DNA of 51,831 bases from the NCBI GenBank assembly GCA_040877445.1, contig JBBDNT010000301.1, forward strand, positions 4,622 to 56,452, in the 5' to 3' direction. Shown in pieces: positions 8,595 through 51,744 of the stretch (its first letter is position 1; each line of letters opens with the position of its first letter). The notes beneath the pieces are model-generated. The model ran no database searches. It was not told where the DNA came from and saw only the letters and a list, made by a program, of their open reading frames with translations. The DNA comes from Planctomycetaceae bacterium (GTDB lineage Bacteria; Planctomycetota; Planctomycetia; Planctomycetales; Planctomycetaceae). Made by a program: the position numbers and the translations under genes.

Positions 8595-8802
8595 GGAGAC
8601 ACCGTACCAGGGAGTGTCGCGGCAAAAGGAACATTCTCGCCGGATTCCCTGATCGGTGGAACCGCGCGAGACGCTCCAAGTTACCAGAGGGCGCGGGGAT
8701 CTCGCCAGAGCGTGGGGCGGCGCGCTCCGCATTCGCATCGCGGCTAACCATAAGAGTTCGCGTCGCGGCTAACACGGGGAGTCGCGGCGGCGATGCGGCG
8801 CG

Positions 8803-12828: not shown

Positions 12829-13572
12829 GTGACCGCTCCCGTAGCCGTCCTCCTCGCCGCCGGCAAGGGGACGCGGATGAAATCCGATCGACCCAAGGTG
12901 CTGCACGAGGCCGGCGGGCGATCGCTGATCGAGCACGTGCTCGCCGCCGTCCGCGCCGCGGGAGTGGGACGGATCGTGGTCGTCGTCGGCTATCGCGCCG
13001 CTGACGTTCGCGCCGCGCTCGCCGGGCAGCCGGACGTCGAGTTCGCGCTGCAAGCCGAGCAACTGGGAACCGGCCACGCCGTGATGATGTGCGCCGAAGC
13101 CTTGCAGAACCACGACGGGCCGGTCTTCGTGCTGGCGGGGGACACGCCGCTCGTGCGCCCCGAATCGCTCCGCGCCCTGCTCGACGATCAGCGACGCGCG
13201 GGGGCGGCCTGCGTCATCGGCACCGCCGAGACCGACGCGAACGAAGGACTGGGGCGGATCGTCCGCGACGCGGCGGGAAACTTCGAGCGAATCGTCGAGC
13301 ACCGCGACGCCACGCCCGAACAACGGGCAATCCGCGAGACCAACACCGGTTGCTACGTCTTCGACTGCGCCGCGCTGCTCGCGGCGCTCGCGCAGCTTCG
13401 TCCGGACAACGCGCAGGCGGAATACTATCTCACCGACTGCCCCGCGCTCTTGAAGGCGGAGGGGCGCCCGGTGCTCGCCAGCCGCCGCTTGAGCATCGAA
13501 GAAGCGCTCGGCGTCAACACGCCCGAGCAACTCGCCGAAGCGGAACGCGCCCTCGCCGAATCGACGGGTTAG
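12829..13572 (+). CDS. sugar-phosphate nucleotidyltransferase (GlmU N-terminal domain-like; no acetyltransferase domain)
   Basis: LLAAGKGTRMKSDRPKVLH is the G-x-G-T-R-M NTP-transferase signature. The sequence ...GTGHAV... and VLAGDTPL follow the GlmU pyrophosphorylase domain pattern. The ORF ends after about 247 aa without a left-handed beta-helix repeat region. Confidence 0.7.
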   Translation: MTAPVAVLLAAGKGTRMKSDRPKVLHEAGGRSLIEHVLAAVRAAGVGRIVVVVGYRAADVRAALAGQPDVEFALQAEQLGTGHAVMMCAEALQNHDGPVFVLAGDTPLVRPESLRALLDDQRRAGAACVIGTAETDANEGLGRIVRDAAGNFERIVEHRDATPEQRAIRETNTGCYVFDCAALLAALAQLRPDNAQAEYYLTDCPALLKAEGRPVLASRRLSIEEALGVNTPEQLAEAERALAESTG

Positions 13573-13625
13573 CCGCGACCCCAAGCCTCGCGTCCCCGGC
13601 CGCGAGCGCAGGGGAGCGCGATTCC

Positions 13626-17242: not shown

Positions 17243-17275
17243 GCGTCGCCGCGAAGTTCACGAGGTAAGTAGGAG

Positions 17276-17378
17276 CCGAGGGGTTTATCCCCTCGGTGGG
17301 GATGCGGGGGCCGCAAAGGAAGGCTCACGTTTTCTCGTTGCGGTCGCCGCAGGACCACCGCGGGGATAAACCCCGCGG
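17276..17378. terminator. pair of inverted-duplicate GC-rich stem-loops between convergent genes (bidirectional terminator candidates)
   Basis: Hairpin 1 at 17276-17296 is ccgagggg-tttat-cccctcgg. Hairpin 2 at 17358-17378 is ccgcgggg-ataaa-ccccgcgg, the reverse-complement copy of hairpin 1 with one substitution. They lie between the MBL hydrolase stop (17242) and the GTPase stop (17398). Confidence 0.55.
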
Positions 17379-17397
17379 CTCGACGAGAGATCGCGAA

Positions 17398-21876: not shown

Positions 21877-22887
21877 TTACCCCCGCCCGCCGAGTTCCAC
21901 CAGCAGGCGTTCGACCGCCATGCGTTCCTGCGTTCGGCCTTCGCCTTTCAATTTGCCGTCTGCGACGAGCAGCCATCGCAGCAGTTTTTCCGCGCGGCGG
22001 CGGCCGATGCGGCGGAGATAAGGCTCCGTCTTCTCCCGATCGCGCGGATGCACTCCCGCGGCGTAGATGGCCGGTTGCATGCGCATGCCGCGGCCGGTGA
22101 GCGCGGTCACCCGCGCGAGGGGGCGCATCTTGAAAGCCAGCCCCCCCAGCGTGTACTCCGGCGCTTGCCGCGCGTCGTACAGTTTGCCCAGCAGCGCCAG
22201 CGCGCTCGCGAGATCGCCGTCGATGACGGCGTCCATCATCGCGAAGGTGGTTTCGGCCTTCCATCCGCCGACGAGCACGCGAACGTCGTCCACACCGATC
22301 TTCTTGCGATCGCCGGCGTAGGCGGCAAGCTTGGCGATTTCCTGGTCGAGCAGACCGAGCGACTCGCCGGCGAATTCGACCATCAGCGCGGCGGCGTCGC
22401 GGGGGAGTTGCACGTCGTGCCGATCGCGGGCGTGCTCCTGCAGCCAGCGGAGGAGCGCCGGCCCCTTCAACTCGGCACACTCGATCGGCAGGCCGGCTTT
22501 CGCGACCGCCTTGGCGAGCCGCGTGTTGCTCGGCCACGTCTTCACTTCGAGCACCAGCACCCCTTTCTTCGCGGGGTGTTCGAGATACTTTTCGAGGCCG
22601 GCCCGATGATTCGTCACGAACGTGTCCGCATCCTCGACGATCACCAGCCGGCGATCGCCCCACATCGAGACGGTCCGCAACTCGTCGGCGACCGACTTCA
22701 GTTCGAGAAATTCATCGGTGCCGTCGAACCGGCTCGCGAGCTGATCTTCCCCTTCCACCTCGCCCAGCACCGCGCGGACGACCTCGGCCAGCGCCGCCTG
22801 CTTCAGGAAGCGTTCCTTCCCGTGAATCGCCACGACCGGCCCGGTCGCGTGCTTCGCGGAATCCTTGACGTACTCGGCGGCGTGCAT
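21877..22887 (-). CDS. holA: DNA polymerase III subunit delta
   Basis: The 336-aa product has the N-terminal clamp-loader-like region (VVAIHGKERFLK, LVLEV) and a helical C-terminal region typical of HolA. Its size and composition are consistent with that assignment. Confidence 0.6.
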   Translation of the reverse strand: MHAAEYVKDSAKHATGPVVAIHGKERFLKQAALAEVVRAVLGEVEGEDQLASRFDGTDEFLELKSVADELRTVSMWGDRRLVIVEDADTFVTNHRAGLEKYLEHPAKKGVLVLEVKTWPSNTRLAKAVAKAGLPIECAELKGPALLRWLQEHARDRHDVQLPRDAAALMVEFAGESLGLLDQEIAKLAAYAGDRKKIGVDDVRVLVGGWKAETTFAMMDAVIDGDLASALALLGKLYDARQAPEYTLGGLAFKMRPLARVTALTGRGMRMQPAIYAAGVHPRDREKTEPYLRRIGRRRAEKLLRWLLVADGKLKGEGRTQERMAVERLLVELGGRG

Positions 22888-22933
22888 GAAAAAACTCGTC
22901 GATTTTCGTGACCTTGAATCGCCGCGATGCCCT

Positions 22934-23115
22934 GGTTAGCCGCGACGCGAAGGCTCTGCGCAGCGGAGCGCTCGCCCCGCGCGCGACCCGCGATTGACCC
23001 GTTCGACGGGCTGGTCTACAGTCCCGCCGCCTCACGATACGCTGGCAGAGGCGCGCTGTCCAATGTGGCGTGGCGGAGCGCTCCGCTGCGCAGAGCCTTC
23101 GCGTCGCGGCTAACC
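22934..23115. repeat. MITE-like element: perfect 40-bp terminal inverted repeats flanking a 102-bp core
   Basis: The sequence at 22934-22973, ggttagccgcgacgcgaaggctctgcgcagcggagcgctc, is the exact reverse complement of 23076-23115. The element lies between divergent holA and the phosphohexomutase-like gene. The outer 13-16 nt (CGCGTCGCGGCTAACC) recur at 4 other intergenic sites in the window. Confidence 0.8.
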
Positions 23116-23122
23116 GGACGAT

Positions 23123-24449
23123 GTCGATGACTGCGCCGATCGCACTCCCTTCACGAACGCAATACATCTGCCCCGGCGAGACGCATCCGATCAGCCGGTC
23201 GGTGCATCTCGCGCGGCTGGCGGCGTTCTTCCCGGCGTGCCGCGATTGCCCGCTGCGATCCGACGTGGGCCATCTATCCGTCGAAACGAAACAACGGCTG
23301 GAAAGCACGCGCCGCCGCGTTCCCCGCGCCTCGCTGTTCACGGTCGAGGGCGTCCGCGGAGTGCATCTCAACGAATTGACGCGCCCGCTCGCGGCACGCA
23401 TCGCGACGGCGTTCGCCCATCTGCTGTGGGAAGAGTTTCCGACGGCGGCGCGCAGCGAGTCGCCGGCGTCCCGCGCCACGCCGGCCGTCGTCGTCGCGCA
23501 CGACGAGCGCCCTTCCGCGCCGGACCTCGTGACCGGCGTCGTCTCGGCGTTGCGGCGGATGAGTTGCCGGGTGATCGACATCCGCCTCGCGACCACGCCC
23601 GTGTTCCGCTTCGCGGTCGATCACCTGCAGGCGCACGGCGGAATCTTCGTGACGGGGAGCGGACACGGCCCGGCTTGGATGGGCATGGACTTCGTCCGCG
23701 CCGCGGGACGGCCGTCGTCGCGCGAAACCGAGGGCGCGGTCGATTCGCGCGGCGGACTGGAGCGCCTGGAAGCCGAAGTCGATCGACCGCACGAGCGCCC
23801 CGTGCGGCATGGCGGCGCGTATCGCACGTTCCAAGCCGCGCTGCCTTACGAAGCGGGGCTGTGGAAGCACTTCCACGCCTTGCGGCCGTTGCGGATCGTC
23901 TGCGGATCCCCCTTGTCGTCGCAACGCCGGTTGTTGGAGAAATTGTTCGAGCGGCTGCCTTGCACGCTCGTCGCGAACGCCCTTCCGGTCCGCCGCCGCG
24001 ACGTGAACGATCCCGAAGACGCCGACGTGCGCCGTGTCGCCGAGGCGGTGCGCCGCGAGCACGCGCATCTGGGCGTCGTGATCGACGACGACGCGCAGGC
24101 CGGCGGCTTTCTCGACGAAACGGGGGAACTCGTCCCGCGGGATGCGATCGCGCGGATGATCGCCGACGTGCTGCTGTCCGAATCGCCGGGACGCCGGATC
24201 GCCGTCGCCGGCGAGCGGTTCGACGCACTTCATGGGGCGATCGCGGCACTCGGCGGCGAGCCGATCGATGCGGGGCGCACCCAGGCGGCGATGTGGCAAG
24301 CGGTTTCGGAAGGAGCGATCCACGGAATCGAAGGGAACCGCCACTGGTTCCACGAAGCCTCCCCCGCCAGCGACGCGATCCTCTCGCTGGCCCGCGTGTT
24401 GCAAGCGCTCAGTCGCGGCGACGCGCCGCTTTCAGCCATGCGCGCGTGA
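23123..24449 (+). CDS. alpha-D-phosphohexomutase-family-like protein with divergent active-site loop
   Basis: EGVRGVHLNELT resembles the PGM/PMM domain-I G-(I/V)-R-G...LT motif. VTGSGHGP stands where T-A-S-H-N-P would be expected. An Asp-rich loop IDDDAQAGGFLDE resembles the Mg-binding loop. The N-terminal region contains CPGE...CRDC. The start is uncertain: ATG 23123, or GTG 23070. Confidence 0.4.
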
Positions 24450-35893: not shown

Positions 35894-35994
35894 CGTCATT
35901 CCCGCGCAGGCGGGAATCCAGTAATCGCCAAGGCGGTTACCAATGGGATTACTGTCCGTGCATCGACTGGGTTCCCGCCTTCGCGGGAATGACG
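35894..35994. repeat. nested multi-hairpin element (three stem-loops enclosed by a 13-bp outer inverted repeat)
   Basis: Outer inverted repeat: cgtcattcccgcg at 35894-35906 pairs with cgcgggaatgacg at 35982-35994. Inner hairpin A at 35898-35917 is attcccgc-gcag-gcgggaat. Inner hairpin B at 35919-35954 pairs cagtaatc with gattactg. Inner hairpin C at 35972-35989 is ttcccgc-cttc-gcgggaa. The element lies between the ECF sigma gene stop (36035) and the PQQ remnant and giant-gene operon. Confidence 0.5.
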
Positions 35995-40271: not shown

Positions 40272-40344
40272 CGGGTGGTACGGGAGTCGAACCCGTGACA
40301 GCCAGATTATCAGTCTGGTGCTCTACCCACTGAGCTAACCACAG
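40272..40344 (-). tRNA. tRNA-Ile (anticodon GAT), with an imperfect acceptor stem
   Basis: The reverse complement reads CTGTGGT-TA-GCTC-AGTGGGTA-GAGC-A-CCAGA-CTGATAA-TCTGG-CTGTC-ACGGG-TTCGACT-CCCGT-ACCACCC-G. The D-arm, anticodon arm (loop CTGATAA, anticodon GAT) and T-arm (TTCGA) are canonical. Positions 1-2 (C,T) do not pair with 71-72 (C,C). CCA is not encoded. Confidence 0.6.
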
Positions 40345-40820
40345 CCGATGCCATCCGGTTCCGAACCCAGTGAGGAACACGCGCCGCCAAATCGCCTGAT
40401 GACGAGGCGCCGCGCGCCGCTGGCCGAACGACACCGTCCGTTTGCCTGAATTTCCTCCTTTGACAGCCGTGGAACGGACGCACCGTCGGGCGAAATGGTT
40501 CGCGTCATCCCGACCATTCTCGACAATCATCCCGCAACTCCGCTCCGCGAGCGCCCCGTCATTCGACGTCCGGCGCATCCGGCGGGGTGCGGCAATCTTC
40601 ACTGGCGTGTGGCAAAAAGTCGGGTGGCGGGGGCGCTTCGCGCAGCGAAAGCCCCCGTCGCGCGCCACGGGGGCTTCCGCGTTGCGGAGCGCCCCCGCCA
40701 CCCATCGCCACAGAGATTGGCGTCGCCAGGAACTCTTGCCGCCCCATCCGGCGACCATCTTCGGTTCCGCCTTGATCCGGCGTTCCATGTCGTTTACGAT
40801 CGATGGTCGAGGCGAACGTC

Positions 40821-42597: not shown

Positions 42598-42698
42598 GCT
42601 GGAGGCGTGTAAGACGGATTGGCAATCCTTCCAATGGTGATCGAGTCGGCAGAACGATCGACCTCCGGCGACGTTGATGCCCCACCGGCGGATTGCCA
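42598..42698. repeat. two copies of a palindromic GTAAGACGGATTGGCAATCCGTCTTAC-type element
   Basis: The sequence at 42598-42617 is gtaagacggattggcaatcc. The sequence at 42678-42698, cggattgccaatccgtcctac, is its approximate reverse complement. More copies lie at 45997-46016 and 51782-51796. Confidence 0.5.
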
Positions 42699-42761
42699 AT
42701 CCGTCCTACGGGCTACCCACGATTTCGAAACCGAATCTTCTACTCTCGAAAGGTACTCCCC

Positions 42762-43335: not shown

Positions 43336-43405
43336 GTAGCGGAAGTCGCAAGACTTCCGACGCTCGCTCGGACGCTCTCGGAATTCTTGCGAATTCCGCT
43401 ACGTC
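43336..43405. repeat. composite REP-like element: two inverted 24-bp hairpin motifs (CGGAATTCTTGCGAATTCCGCTAC family), also resembling an ECF-type -35/-10 promoter
   Basis: The sequence at 43336-43359 is gtagcggaagtcgcaagacttccg. The sequence at 43379-43402 is cggaattcttgcgaattccgctac, followed by gtc. Each motif is an 8-bp stem with a ttgc loop. The two substitutions in the first copy are compensatory (cggaagtc/gacttccg). On the plus strand this reads GGAAT-N17-CGTC, 55 nt upstream of the HlyD start. Confidence 0.6.
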
Positions 43406-45068: not shown

Positions 45069-45796
45069 CCGCACTCGTCCAGGTTCGCCACGTCGCCAAG
45101 CGCTATCACAAAGGGGGCGAAACGATCACGCCGCTCGACGGCGTCTCGCTCGACGTCGCGCAAGGGGAGTTTCTTTCGCTGATGGGGGCCAGCGGGACCG
45201 GGAAATCGACGCTGTTGAACCTCATCGCGGGCATCGACCGCCCGGACGAAGGAAGCATCGCCGTCGCCGGAACCGAAATCACCCGCCTCTCGCGCACGCG
45301 GCTGGCGCATTGGCGGGCGGCGAACGTCGGCTACATCTTTCAGACGCACAACCTCGTGCCGGTGCTCACCGCCTACGAGAACATCGAGCTGCCGTTGCTC
45401 TTGCTTTCGATGTCGCGAGCCGAGCGCCGCAAGCGCGTCGCCGTCGCGTTGGAAGCGGTCGGGCTGACCGACCGGGCGGACCATTATCCCCGGCAGCTTT
45501 CCGGCGGACAGGAGCAGCGGGTCGGCATCGGCCGGGCGATCGTGGCGCATCCCACGCTGGTCGTCGCCGACGAGCCGACCGGCGACCTCGACCCCGAAAC
45601 CTCGGAGCAGATTCTACACCTGCTGCGGCGGCTCAACGACGAACTCGGCATCACGCTGCTGATGGTCACGCACGATCGGGAGGCGGCGGGAATCGCCGAC
45701 CGGCAATTCCATCTCGATCAGGGCCGGCTGGTGGAATCGGGAATGGGAGATCGAAAATCAGAGATCAGAGATCCGGCGTTGTCATCGAACCGGTAG
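45065..45796 (+). CDS. ABC transporter ATP-binding protein (MacB/LolD-type)
   Basis: Walker A is [12 protein letters not shown]. The ABC signature is [14 protein letters not shown]. Walker B is [12 protein letters not shown], and the H-loop is VTHD. Confidence 0.85.
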
Positions 45797-46016
45797 GACG
45801 GAATTGTATTCCGTCCGCCAAGAAAACCGTTGCGTTTCGTGTTGCAGACGATGATCGGGAACGGCGACGATCGCGCATGTCTCACCGGCGGGCGGGGACG
45901 ACGGAATATAATTCCGTCCTACCCGCCCATGCGTCTCTCCACAAAATGAAACGTGAAAACGTACTACTGCCTCTATCAACATCGACGTCGTGGGAAGGAT
46001 TGCCAATCCGCCTTAC
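45793..46016. repeat. cluster of three related palindromic hairpin elements (GTAGGACGGAAT...ATTCCGTCCTAC and GGATTGCCAATCCGCCTTAC types)
   Basis: The sequence at 45793-45816 is gtaggacggaat-tgt-attccgtcc. The sequence at 45898-45921 is gacgacggaat-ata-attccgtcctac. The sequence at 45997-46016 is ggattgccaatccgccttac. All lie in the 330-bp gap between the ABC ATPase and the second permease. Confidence 0.5.
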
Positions 46017-47603: not shown

Positions 47604-47693
47604 GGCGCGCTCCCCTTCGCTCGCGGCGCCGCTCGGCTGCGGGTCGCGGCTAACCGGCGAACGCAAATGATCGCGCGTCGCGCGGCGCGGGCG

Positions 47694-49365: not shown

Positions 49366-49440
49366 GTAGCGGAATTCGCAAGAATTCCGGCGATGTCGCA
49401 GTTGCTGGCCCATGTCGGAACTCTTGCGAATTCCGCTACG
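49366..49440. repeat. second copy of the composite REP-like double-hairpin element
   Basis: The sequence at 49366-49389 is gtagcggaattcgcaagaattccg, the exact reverse complement of 43379-43402. The sequence at 49416-49439 is cggaactcttgcgaattccgctac. The arrangement matches the copy at 43336-43405. It lies between the DUF1501 start (49181) and the small gene ending at 49469. Confidence 0.6.
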
Positions 49441-49747: not shown

Positions 49748-50067
49748 GGGAACTCGGATTGACCGGCGGAGCGGCCCCGGCGTACCCTCCCCGCCCGAAC
49801 CTCGGAACATTCCTCTCGACCGCGTCGATCAATGGAGCCTCTCCAATGATGACGAATTCTTCCACGCACGCCAATGGACGGATTCCGCGACGAAGCCGTC
49901 CGTCGGCGGATGAGGCGTGCCTTCACGATACGGCGACCAGCGCGCTCCCCCTCGCCCCCTTGGGGGGAGAGGGTCGGGGAGCGGGGACAATCGCGGCAGC
50001 CGTTTCCCGATTCGCGACGTCTCGCATTGAAGCGGAATGGGGTAACGAGTCGGTCCAGACGCAGGCC

Positions 50068-51744
50068 GTGTCCCATGCTCCCCCTCACCCTAACCCTCTC
50101 CCCCGCAAAGCCGGGGGAGAGGGGACCGAAGACCGGCGGCTGCCGGGTCGGAATCGAATCCGCATCGCGCCGCTCTCTTGGACGCTCGCGCCGCTAGGGA
50201 TTGCTGCGCTGGCCCTCGTCGTCACGGCGGCGCTCGCCCAAGTGGAATCGGAACCGTCGGCGGGAGCGACGAGCGCCCTCGTGATGGTGGACGGGCGGCT
50301 GATCGAAGGGCGGATCGAACGCACCAACGAAGGCTACATGGTGCACCAGCCCGGTTCGAAATTCCTGCTGCTCTCATCGCATGTGCGGGTTCACGGGAAG
50401 GATCGCCGCGACGCCTATCTCAAGCTGCGGCGGACCTACCCGCTGGGCCGTCCCGATCCGCACGTGGAACTCGCGCGGTGGTGCGTCGCCCACGGGCTGC
50501 TGGACGACGCCCGGCGCGAGCTCCGCGAGGCGCTGCGTCTGGCCCCCAACCACGCCGCCGCCCGCGCATTGTTCGACGATCTCCGCGCCGTCGCGCCGGA
50601 CGAGCGCGGCGGCGCGCGCGATCGACCGGCGGACGTCGCGAGCGAGTCCCCGCCATCCGAAAACGGCGGCATCGGTCTTGCTTCGGCTTTCACGCCGGCG
50701 AGCATCGCCCCGGGACACGCGCTTCCCGCCGTCGAGCCGCTCGACAGCCGCGTGCTGGTGACCCTTGAAGGGCGAATCGTCGAGGGGCGGATCACCCGCA
50801 ACGCGGGGGGCTATCAGATCGAGCGGACCGGCGCGCGGTTCGTCATTCCCGACGCGCAGGTCCGCGTCGAAGCCGCCGATCGGAGCGAGGCGTTCGACAA
50901 GATTCGAAGCACGCTGCCTCCCGGACGACCCGAGCCGCACGTCGCGCTGGCCCGCTGGTGCATCGGACACCAGATGCGGGATGAAGCCCGCGTCGCGCTG
51001 CTGCACGCGCTGCGGCTCGATCCGGCGAACGCCGACGCGCGTTCGACGCTGAAGCGGCTTGAAGAGTCGAACGATCCGCGGAACGCGGCCCATCTCGAGC
51101 GCCCCGCCGCGCCGCCGCGCACCGCGGACGGGTTCGATCCGCCGGCCGCCGTCTCGCTGGCGGGACTCACTCCCGAGACCGCCGAGGAGTTCGTGGTCCG
51201 CGTGCAGCCGCTGTTGATGAACAAGTGCGGGAACGCCGCGTGTCACGGCAGCGTCTCCGACCAGGCATTTCGACTCGAAATGGTGCGTCCCGGACGAGGG
51301 GCGCATCGCGCGGCGTCGGAGCGGAACCTGGCGGCGGTGCTCCGCCGCATCGATCGCGAGCGGCCCGAGCGGAGCACGCTGTTGACCGCTCCCGAGGACG
51401 CCCACGACCGCGGGCGACCGGTGTTCCGCGACCACAACGCGCCGGCGCAGCGGGAGGTTCTTTCCGAATGGGTGCGGAAGATCGCGGCCGACATGCCGGA
51501 GACGCCGACGACCTCGCAACCCGTCGCGGCGCGGCCGGCGGCGGAAACGCGCAGTCCGACGAAACCATCGGCGATCGCGACCGCTCCCCCGCGTGGAGTG
51601 CCGGCACGTCCCACGAGTCCCCGCGCGGCGAACTCGACTTCGCTGACGGACGCGGACGAGAAGTTCCTCGAGGACATCCTGCGGGAAGAACGCCCCGACG
51701 CGTTCGATCCCGAAGAGTTCAACCGGCTTCATCGCACCCCGTAG
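50068..51744 (+). CDS. hypothetical membrane-anchored protein with two tandem ~100-aa repeat modules and a C-terminal CX4CH motif
   Basis: The ORF is open from 49759, but its first ~125 codons overlap GC hairpin elements. I chose an in-frame GTG at 50068 that precedes the anchor RIRIAPLSWTLAPLGIAALALVVTAALAQ. The repeat modules are GRLIEGRIERTNEGYMVHQPGSKFLLLSSHVRVHGKDRRDAYLKLRRTYPLGRPDPHVELARWCVAHGLLDDARRELREALRLAPNHAAARALFDDL and GRIVEGRITRNAGGYQIERTGARFVIPDAQVRVEAADRSEAFDKIRSTLPPGRPEPHVALARWCIGHQMRDEARVALLHALRLDPANADARSTLKRL. KCGNAACHG lies downstream. Confidence 0.5.
   Translation: MSHAPPHPNPLPRKAGGEGTEDRRLPGRNRIRIAPLSWTLAPLGIAALALVVTAALAQVESEPSAGATSALVMVDGRLIEGRIERTNEGYMVHQPGSKFLLLSSHVRVHGKDRRDAYLKLRRTYPLGRPDPHVELARWCVAHGLLDDARRELREALRLAPNHAAARALFDDLRAVAPDERGGARDRPADVASESPPSENGGIGLASAFTPASIAPGHALPAVEPLDSRVLVTLEGRIVEGRITRNAGGYQIERTGARFVIPDAQVRVEAADRSEAFDKIRSTLPPGRPEPHVALARWCIGHQMRDEARVALLHALRLDPANADARSTLKRLEESNDPRNAAHLERPAAPPRTADGFDPPAAVSLAGLTPETAEEFVVRVQPLLMNKCGNAACHGSVSDQAFRLEMVRPGRGAHRAASERNLAAVLRRIDRERPERSTLLTAPEDAHDRGRPVFRDHNAPAQREVLSEWVRKIAADMPETPTTSQPVAARPAAETRSPTKPSAIATAPPRGVPARPTSPRAANSTSLTDADEKFLEDILREERPDAFDPEEFNRLHRTP

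Follow-up and report, generated by a model that had tools for sequence, protein, structure and literature searches.

A 182-bp inverted-repeat region between holA and a phosphomutase-like gene of a planctomycete: a probable pair of REP units around an older spacer

Systems in which repetitive extragenic palindromes (REPs) occur together with REP-associated tyrosine transposases (RAYTs, also named TnpA-REP) were reportedly treated by Nunvar in 2010 and by Ton-Hoang in 2012. They are the closest described systems to the subject of this study, a 182-bp region with long inverted repeats between holA and a phosphoglucomutase/phosphomannomutase-like (PGM-like) gene, which lies in a 51,831-nt stretch of a Planctomycetaceae metagenome-assembled genome (MAG); the whole stretch is referred to as the window, and all coordinates are positions in it. 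REPs, their inverted doublets (BIMEs or REPINs) and the RAYT/TnpA-REP enzymes are well described (PMC3116915, PMC3733652, PMC6006769), with examples of REP, BIME and REPIN sequences and RAYTs from Escherichia coli and Pseudomonas fluorescens (Bertels and Rainey, 2011, PMC3116915). Class 2 TnpA-REP is defined by the motif Y---NP (Quentin et al., 2018, PMC6006769), and a rare class 3 occurs in Planctomycetes, Acidobacteria and Proteobacteria with flanking atypical hairpins; the atypical classes 2.6 and 3 both lack the GT[AG]G tag (PMC6006769). Atypical REPs of the form CnGA-GCCGCGACC-GTNA-GGGAGCG(G), that is CnGA-GCCGCGACC-loop-GGGAGCG(G), are given in Table S1 of that study, and class 3 REP-like structures are found in Legionella, in Solibacter (about 600 copies) and in Planctomyces limnophilus (PMC6006769).

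The 182-bp region very probably consists of two inverted REP units, which belong to a RayT-associated REP/REPIN family of Gemmatales and other Planctomycetota and flank an ancestral, predicted bidirectional holA/PGM promoter. The right unit appears to be a recent addition specific to the lineage of the window. The initial annotation of the window had interpreted the same 182 bp as one MITE (a miniature transposable element with inverted repeats).

The inverted repeat and the DNA between its arms

The sequence at 22934-22973 is the exact reverse complement of 23076-23115 (40/40 bases, with 102 nt between the arms), as the initial annotation had stated and a repeat search of the window confirmed, and this is the longest of the perfect inverted repeats in the window. 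Beyond the 40 nt the arms differ by a 1-nt indel and then match for three further bases (GGAGCGCTC-GCC versus GGAGCGCTCC-GCC), so that the REP unit is taken to comprise about 44 nt. Folded as single-stranded DNA, the 182-bp region reaches -87.4 kcal/mol (z = -9.9). Its location between divergent holA and a phosphohexomutase-like gene, also given initially, agrees with Pfam matches on both sides. The features of the locus are as follows.

22934-22976, plus strand: left arm, probable REP unit, with the head GGTTAGCCGCGAC outermost and 46 nt from the holA ATG; perfect repeat 22934-22973
23072-23115, minus strand: right arm, probable REP unit and inverted copy, with the head ending 5 nt before the ATG of the PGM-like gene; perfect repeat 23076-23115
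22974-23075, no strand: interior, ancestral holA/PGM intergenic DNA according to the alignment with the related loci L002 and L004
22994-23022, plus strand: predicted sigma70-type promoter of the PGM-like gene, TTGACC (22994-22999), 17 nt, TACAGT (23017-23022)
23034-23062, minus strand: predicted sigma70-type promoter of holA, TGGACA, 17 nt, TATCGT
21877-22887, minus strand: holA, DNA polymerase III delta subunit (Pfam DNA_pol3_delta and DNA_pol3_delta_C; homologs found)
about 23121-24449, plus strand: phosphoglucomutase/phosphomannomutase-like gene (Pfam PGM_PMM_I), its start placed by the L002 alignment; tblastn matches begin at residue 2

Orthologous holA/PGM loci were fetched from the closest relatives of the source MAG, namely L002/L003 (holA 79% identical) and L004/L005 (75%). 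In L002/L003 the divergent genes are 182 bp apart, and their spacer contains the left arm, 36/40 identical to that of the window, and the interior, without the right arm. In L004/L005 the spacer measures 90 bp and is made up of the interior alone, with neither arm. The left arm of L002 has the same side, the same orientation and a similar distance to the promoter as that of the window, and its conservation is as high as that of the adjoining promoter block, where 70 of 78 aligned columns are identical between the window and L002. The right arm was absent from every relative examined. A MAFFT alignment hinted at arms in decay, a right one in L002 and a left one in L004, but Smith-Waterman comparison with 1000 dinucleotide shuffles gave no significant signal for arm remnants in either relative (p 0.07-0.9), and the idea was rejected.

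Since the interior aligns with the holA/PGM spacer of relatives that lack one arm (L002) or both (L004), it is ancestral host DNA, and with the predicted promoters that it contains, the “loop” of the supposed element would be a compact bidirectional promoter older than both arms. As judged from these alignments, the arm-less state was shown to be the ancestral one at this locus. The initial annotation had named the presence or absence of the region in relatives as the way to tell an insertion from an ancient palindrome, and the outcome was divided: the interior is ancient, the arms are not.

The more distant loci agree with this picture of the interior. A metagenome scan with a holA alignment yielded 69 loci, all with a holA identity of at most 54%, and no closer relative above that value. 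The divergent order of the PGM-like gene and holA is kept at 20 loci, L002 and L004 counted, and the motif ATTGACC-N17-TAcAgT adjoins the holA start in several arm-less lineages down to about 45% holA identity, and the same pattern is conserved in L002, L004, L126, L133, L138, L140, L143, L149 and others. None of the 56 more distant orthologous loci carries a family head upstream of holA. A promoter scan of the interior found two sigma70-type sites, compared with 0.0 expected in shuffles, and the holA-facing hexamers correspond to the blocks TGTCCAA and CACGATA, which are invariant in the three-way alignment of the window, L002 and L004.

The holA ATG and the left arm are separated by a 46-nt spacer that L002 lacks. 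Within it, positions 22905-22927 match 22813-22835 inside the holA coding region at 18 of 23 positions; this may be a small duplication or a chance match. A scan of the whole window with Rfam returned a tRNA-Ile only. The sole match in a permissive Rfam scan of 22850-23200 was to a microRNA-precursor model (38.7 bits against a gathering score of 142) and was rejected as a hairpin artefact.

The repeat family and its RayT-like enzyme

The terminal motif of the arms had been noted at four further sites of the window, and all of them proved to belong to one family. The motif GGTTAGCCGCGAC occurs exactly at 13567 (plus strand), 22934 (plus), 23115 (minus) and 47655 (minus), and with one mismatch at 8749 and 8774 (both minus). 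The head core TTAGCCGCG is present six times in the window against 0.31 expected, a number that none of 100 shuffles reached. Because a second block, GCGMAGSGGAGCGC, trails the head at 13606, 22958, 23078 and 47607, the recurring sequence is the head of a longer unit rather than a bare 13-mer. Instead of solo ends or footprints of a 182-bp element, as had been suggested, the dispersed sites are whole or truncated REP units, and these four members differ clearly as variants from the two holA/PGM arms:

13567-13620, plus strand: REP unit, long-insert C-type variant, filling the gap between two convergent genes
47604-47655, minus strand: REP unit, C-type, between two minus-strand genes and ending directly at the downstream ATG (47603)
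8719-8774, minus strand: two tandem members in the same orientation, a short unit (8719-8749) and a truncated head (8750-8774)

The copies in the window sit between genes or at gene termini. The description of these sites as always intergenic was nearly right, except that the TAG at 13570-13572 within a head is the stop codon of the gene at 12829-13572.

A pattern scan of genome contigs, with one genome per species, recovered at least 119 stretches with members of this family. Among the matches listed almost all are from Gemmatales MAGs (Gemmataceae, Limnoglobus, Zavarzinella, Urbifossiella, an “Isosphaera” MAG and unnamed Planctomycetota). Together with the window the listed loci contain at least 203 heads and at least 39 convergent pairs. 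In each unit a head that is conserved and single-stranded, NN-TTA-GCCGCGAC, precedes an imperfect hairpin; in the hairpin CCGCG.AC[S] pairs with [S']GG.A.GCGCG as the closing stem, with a tandem G.A as internal loop and a variable insert at the apex. Units measure about 31-54 nt and the apical insert 5-34 nt, with modes at 9, 14 and 16. In 164 of 171 arms the position following GAC is complementary to the one preceding GGAGCG (141 G-C and 23 C-G, with no G-G and one C-C). When folded, single arms were no more stable than shuffles in the GC-rich background. In a typical doublet NN-TTAGCCGCGAC-[G/C]CG.AG... is followed by GGAGCGCG, 0-50 nt and the inverted arm. The arms of the doublets are 38-43 nt long, and the convergent pairs span 66-130 bp, save one of 164 bp that contains an N-gap and the 182 bp of the window.

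The density is about one head per 5-20 kb, with some 0.5-2 further heads per 10 kb in many genomes, which extrapolates to a copy number in the hundreds or higher for each genome. Within one genome nearly all heads share their outermost dinucleotide, which differs from one genome to another: AA stands in 26 of 27 heads from three Limnoglobus MAGs, GT in 9/9 and 7/7 heads, GG in 9/9 and 5/5, CG in 4/4, and GG in five of the six heads of the window. Such a genome-specific dinucleotide is a signature of continuing amplification or homogenisation within each lineage. According to gene calls that in the fetched loci are GC3-based approximations, the head supplies the stop codon for 17 of the 95 heads toward which a gene ends; the reverse strand of the head carries TAA. 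Heads are found 5-14 nt from a start codon at L002 holA, at two sites of L006 and at the RayT genes themselves, and many heads, among the matches listed, lie within 100 nt of contig ends.

A weak IS200-like match led to an open reading frame (ORF) of 197 amino acids at L058 2186-2779, which contains an HUH motif (SEHIHLV) and a tyrosine motif (RYVEDNP). It matches Pfam Y1_Tnp with E = 1.3e-4 and, as best match, NCBIfam REP_Tyr_transpos (REP-associated tyrosine transposase) with E = 2.9e-7; weak matches to ISDra2-type transposase structures were also found. The protein is well conserved, with 4867 homologs that frequently bear the JGI name “RayT.” At the L058 gene a doublet head provides the stop codon with its TAG, and there is a further arm 32 nt upstream of the start. 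Four homologs were examined further: L195, on a complete 8.7-Mb Gemmataceae chromosome, L196, L197, and L198 from a cultured phycisphaera, a Humisphaera borealis isolate. In all five cases (L058, L195, L196, L197 and L198) the RayT-like gene is flanked on both sides by family arms or doublets within about 130 nt, and in three of them (L058 2186, L195 3589 and L197 3586) the gene takes its stop codon from the TAG of a head. This flanking is the arrangement of a REPtron, and homology together with gene context suggests that enzyme and repeat belong together. A transposase recurring beside the copies was sought by clustering ORFs from the 119 listed loci and was discarded as an idea, as only ordinary planctomycete paralogs came up (DUF1501, kinases, ECF sigma factors, PSD1 and others).

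Compared with the known systems, the family resembles REP/REPIN-RAYT in its hairpin units, which lie outside genes, are about 40 nt long and have a conserved and unpaired 5′ foot, in its high copy number as extrapolated, in its common inverted doublets that lack target-site duplications, in its homogeneity within a genome, and in an HUH/Y1 gene with Y---NP that is flanked by units in a REPtron-like manner. The units are imperfect, hairpin-forming palindromes within the REP size range (about 21-65 nt), and they are numerous and, as judged from the copies in the window, predominantly extragenic. Inverted doublets are frequent among the heads, and the cognate, flanked tyrosine transposase combines HUH with Y---NP, the class 2 TnpA-REP signature. 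Unlike in classical REPs, the hairpin is broken by the internal loop of tandem G.A and by an apical insert that is long and variable, and unlike in REP doublets, the units at holA/PGM are 102 bp apart around host promoter DNA and do not form a transposable doublet. With class 3 the family shares the half-sites GCCGCGAC(C) ... GG(G)AGCG(G), the design of stem, G.A loop and stem, the missing GTAG tag, the high copy number and the occurrence in Planctomycetes. The published class 3 sequences, however, have a CnGA foot and a 4-nt loop where the present ones have a TTA foot and an insert of 5-34 nt, and the published proteins have NHVH, W[TA] and Y----Q where the present ones have EHIH, WK and Y---NP. 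The family thus appears to mix features of two published classes, a class 2 protein and a class 3-like REP.

Other described elements are less close. Neisseria Correia elements and the enterobacterial ERIC and IRU MITEs are likewise 70-130-bp intergenic palindromes whose termini are long inverted repeats; they are frequently co-transcribed and can change leaders and the ends of genes, but they derive from or are mobilised by DDE transposases and have target-site duplications (TA for Correia), whereas none were found here and the linked enzyme is an HUH tyrosine transposase. TIRYT elements, in which a tyrosine transposase gene is bracketed by long inverted repeats, also form a moderately abundant family (Di Nocera et al., 2013, PMC3733652) and may be compared with L196 and L058, although these genes are flanked by hairpin units and doublets that belong to a very abundant family. 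The REP class with a CGTC tag (PMC3733652), with stems of 8-9 bp, loops of 4-5 nt and no associated transposase, was rejected as a match. No paper was found in the literature that contains the arm sequence in a relevant context or that ties Gemmata to REPs. The kind of element is therefore already known, and the family itself appears to be undescribed.

Several single loci of the family deserve mention. Two Limnoglobus species that are 93% identical at L009 5190-5253 and L038 5663-6805 differ by a 1.1-kb deletion in L009, which removes a GGDEF-domain gene intact in L038 and has a solo REP arm at its junction; solo arms can therefore mark REP-associated deletions. This pair had been considered as base-exact filled and empty sites and was dismissed as such, the difference being no clean insertion. 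At L049 3944-4032 and L118 2048-2136 the same doublet occurs with identical 10-nt flanks, about 0.8 Mb apart in the complete genome OY970367.1, probably inside a larger duplicated segment. L006 (IMGVR_UViG_3300047160_018780) is labelled viral and carries three family heads, with a doublet at 591-672; it aligns at 75% identity over 2.4 kb with contig L030 of a Gemmataceae MAG and resembles the chromosome of a planctomycete, or the flank of a prophage, more than it does a free virus. The family is also present in MAGs labelled Vicinamibacteraceae (isolate PLA1), Alcaligenaceae and Phycisphaerae (L021/L099/L102, L025/L120 and L045/L094), and Bin_17 has RayT fragments of 63-65% identity as well. 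This suggests that contigs of planctomycetes were given a wrong label or put in a wrong bin, or else that the host range is wider.

Origin of the arms and rival explanations

The single MITE of the initial annotation, inserted as one unit with 40-bp terminal inverted repeats, would account for the perfect complementarity, for termini dispersed in the window and for the absence of a transposase from it, and the doublets of the family are indeed MITE-like. This explanation is nevertheless barely credible, as the interior aligns in relatives that lack one or both arms and holds conserved predicted promoters. Terminal inverted repeats are present, both here and in the doublets, but no target-site duplications were found in the flanks of 38 doublets or of the window feature, and instead of an empty site the arm-less L004 and the single-arm L002 contain the interior. 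Moreover, 182 bp is outside the usual 66-130 bp, the stems covary in the dispersed sites, which are complete hairpin units, and the enzyme is of the HUH/Y1 rather than the DDE type. What stands of the initial proposal is that the arms belong to a dispersed, non-autonomous and apparently mobile family. That the arms are an ancient selected palindrome, an operator pair or a cruciform controlling a bidirectional holA/PGM promoter, is only slightly less improbable. Their symmetry about the predicted promoter and the conservation of the left arm in L002 would fit such a role, but L004 and the 56 more distant loci have no arms although several of them keep the PGM-facing promoter, and the same sequence recurs at many unrelated sites (the heads counted above), including gene 3′ ends and convergent gene pairs. 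The arms also flank RayT genes, and the right arm is unique to the lineage of the window. An assembly artefact as the source of the right arm is hardly conceivable either. Only one assembly spans the whole feature, and look-ups of exact proteins (three PGM start variants and BacA) gave no second contig; the arm, however, lies inside a 52-kb contig with unique syntenic sequence on both sides. In addition, contig L001 of an independent Logan assembly ends exactly 30 nt into the left arm, which is the break expected of a k=31 assembler at a repeat (k-1 = 30 nt), as if the 31-mers of the arm had two flanks in the sample.

A more serious alternative, although still an unlikely one, concerns the right arm only, which could have been made locally. 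The left arm would have been duplicated in inverted orientation or copied through a template switch, or else an older divergent REP would have been perfected in hairpin-templated repair (gene conversion). Over 40 nt the two arms do not differ at all, and the other four members in the window are plainly other variants. The left arm seems to be old, being shared with L002, and 7 of the 38 tallied doublets have perfect terminal complementarity over at least 36 nt, so that perfect pairing of arms is not unusual and homogenisation of paired arms is common. By contrast, the same arm variant exists in other genomes (in a doublet of L082 with 1 nt different, and in L049/L118), so that an active master copy could give the identity as well; no intermediate state was observed, and a simple fold-back copy would not be expected to show the 1-nt indel found at the unit's inner end.

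The favoured explanation, two REP units around an older spacer, has to be weighed against several points. The left arm is likely orthologous to that of L002, and the spacing around it differs: 46 nt lie between arm and holA ATG in the window and 8 nt in L002, and 20 and 12 nt, respectively, between arm and -35 hexamer. On the other side, the PGM leader after TGTCCAAT comprises 56 nt in the window (arm included) and 49 nt in L002; the two do not align, so that insertion of the right arm is not separable from replacement or local copying. Both promoters are predictions from consensus. The L058 ORF falls below the curated cut-offs, with 22.5 against 23 bits (Pfam) and 30.5 against 80 bits (NCBIfam), and tblastn of the window with the family RayT found nothing significant, in keeping with the initial statement that it holds no transposase. 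The covariation of the stem gives a Fisher p of 3e-27, which overstates independence as the copies are related. The foot is NN-TTA-G (GGTTAG, GTTTAG, AATTAG or CGTTAG) rather than the classical GT[AG]G, and no filled/empty pair with base-exact boundaries was obtained.

In the proposed course of events, the left arm would have been gained before the split of the species of the window from that of L002. The units would be cut and rejoined as single-stranded DNA by the associated RayT, by analogy with what is established for E. coli TnpA-REP. The right arm would have followed recently: a RayT-type event could have brought it from the same master variant, or the left arm could have served as the template for copying or correction. 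Its recent arrival is proposed as the reason for the 40/40 identity. Transcription is predicted to start near 23029 (rightwards) and 23027 (leftwards), both between the arms. Each of the divergent mRNAs would then carry the same 40-nt leader sequence, GAGCGCUCCGCUGCGCAGAGCCUUCGCGUCGCGGCUAACC, whose end would be 5 nt short of the AUG in the PGM mRNA and 46 nt short of it in the holA mRNA, and neither transcript would contain both arms. The arms are probably not a dedicated regulatory device. Their local effect is likely to be modest, through leader structure, stability or translation initiation, or as a hairpin-prone stretch of DNA, and the consequence at the locus is probably small; the PGM leader RNA alone has no unusual structure (z = +1.3). 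It is conceivable, but improbable, that the pair was co-opted, with the shared leader element and/or pairing of the arms in single-stranded or supercoiled DNA, which would loop out the promoter, providing coordinated REP-dependent control of holA and the PGM-like gene, and with arm, promoter and arm even forming a mobilisable cassette. In that case a replication gene (holA, clamp-loader delta) and an envelope-precursor gene (sugar-phosphate mutase) would be under joint control.

Wider meaning and other repeats in the window

When a long perfect inverted repeat is met in a planctomycete spacer, membership in a REP family should be checked before a single insertion or a regulatory palindrome is called. 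The family points to a large and apparently uncatalogued REP/REPIN population in Gemmatales that reaches into Phycisphaerae, and its pairing of a protein of class 2 signature with a REP that is class 3-like and lacks GTAG bears on the co-evolution of REP types and enzymes. It also matters for genome annotation and assembly, as its heads often give stop codons and adjoin start codons, the site of a gene deletion is marked by a solo unit, and the repeats break short-read assemblies.

Other repeats accompany this family. Two inverted doublets of a classical GTAG-tagged REP (GTAGCGGAATTCGCAAG...) at 43336-43402 and 49366-49439, with four heads against 0.16 expected, make up a second REP family of this genome. 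A third REP-like family, GTAGGACGGAAT..ATTCCGTC (GTAG and an 8-bp hairpin), is represented at 42609-42709, 45793-45922 and 51782 by two inverted doublets and one more head at the end of the window. Long imperfect palindromes, 84-93% complementary, lie at 17273-17381, 35894-35994 and 40622-40703; one of them is CGTCATTCCCGCGCAGGCGGGAATC, and another is about 280 nt from the tRNA-Ile (40272-40344). At the contig end of L002 (1-982), about 1 kb beyond the PGM-like gene, there is an IS4-type DDE transposase gene (DDE_Tnp_1), which is unrelated to the REP family. Finally, an inverted repeat with GGGGAGAGGGTTAGGGTGAGGGG is located at 49963-50104, and the same motif is found upstream of holA in the unrelated planctomycete contig L131, so that this is probably another phylum-wide repeat.

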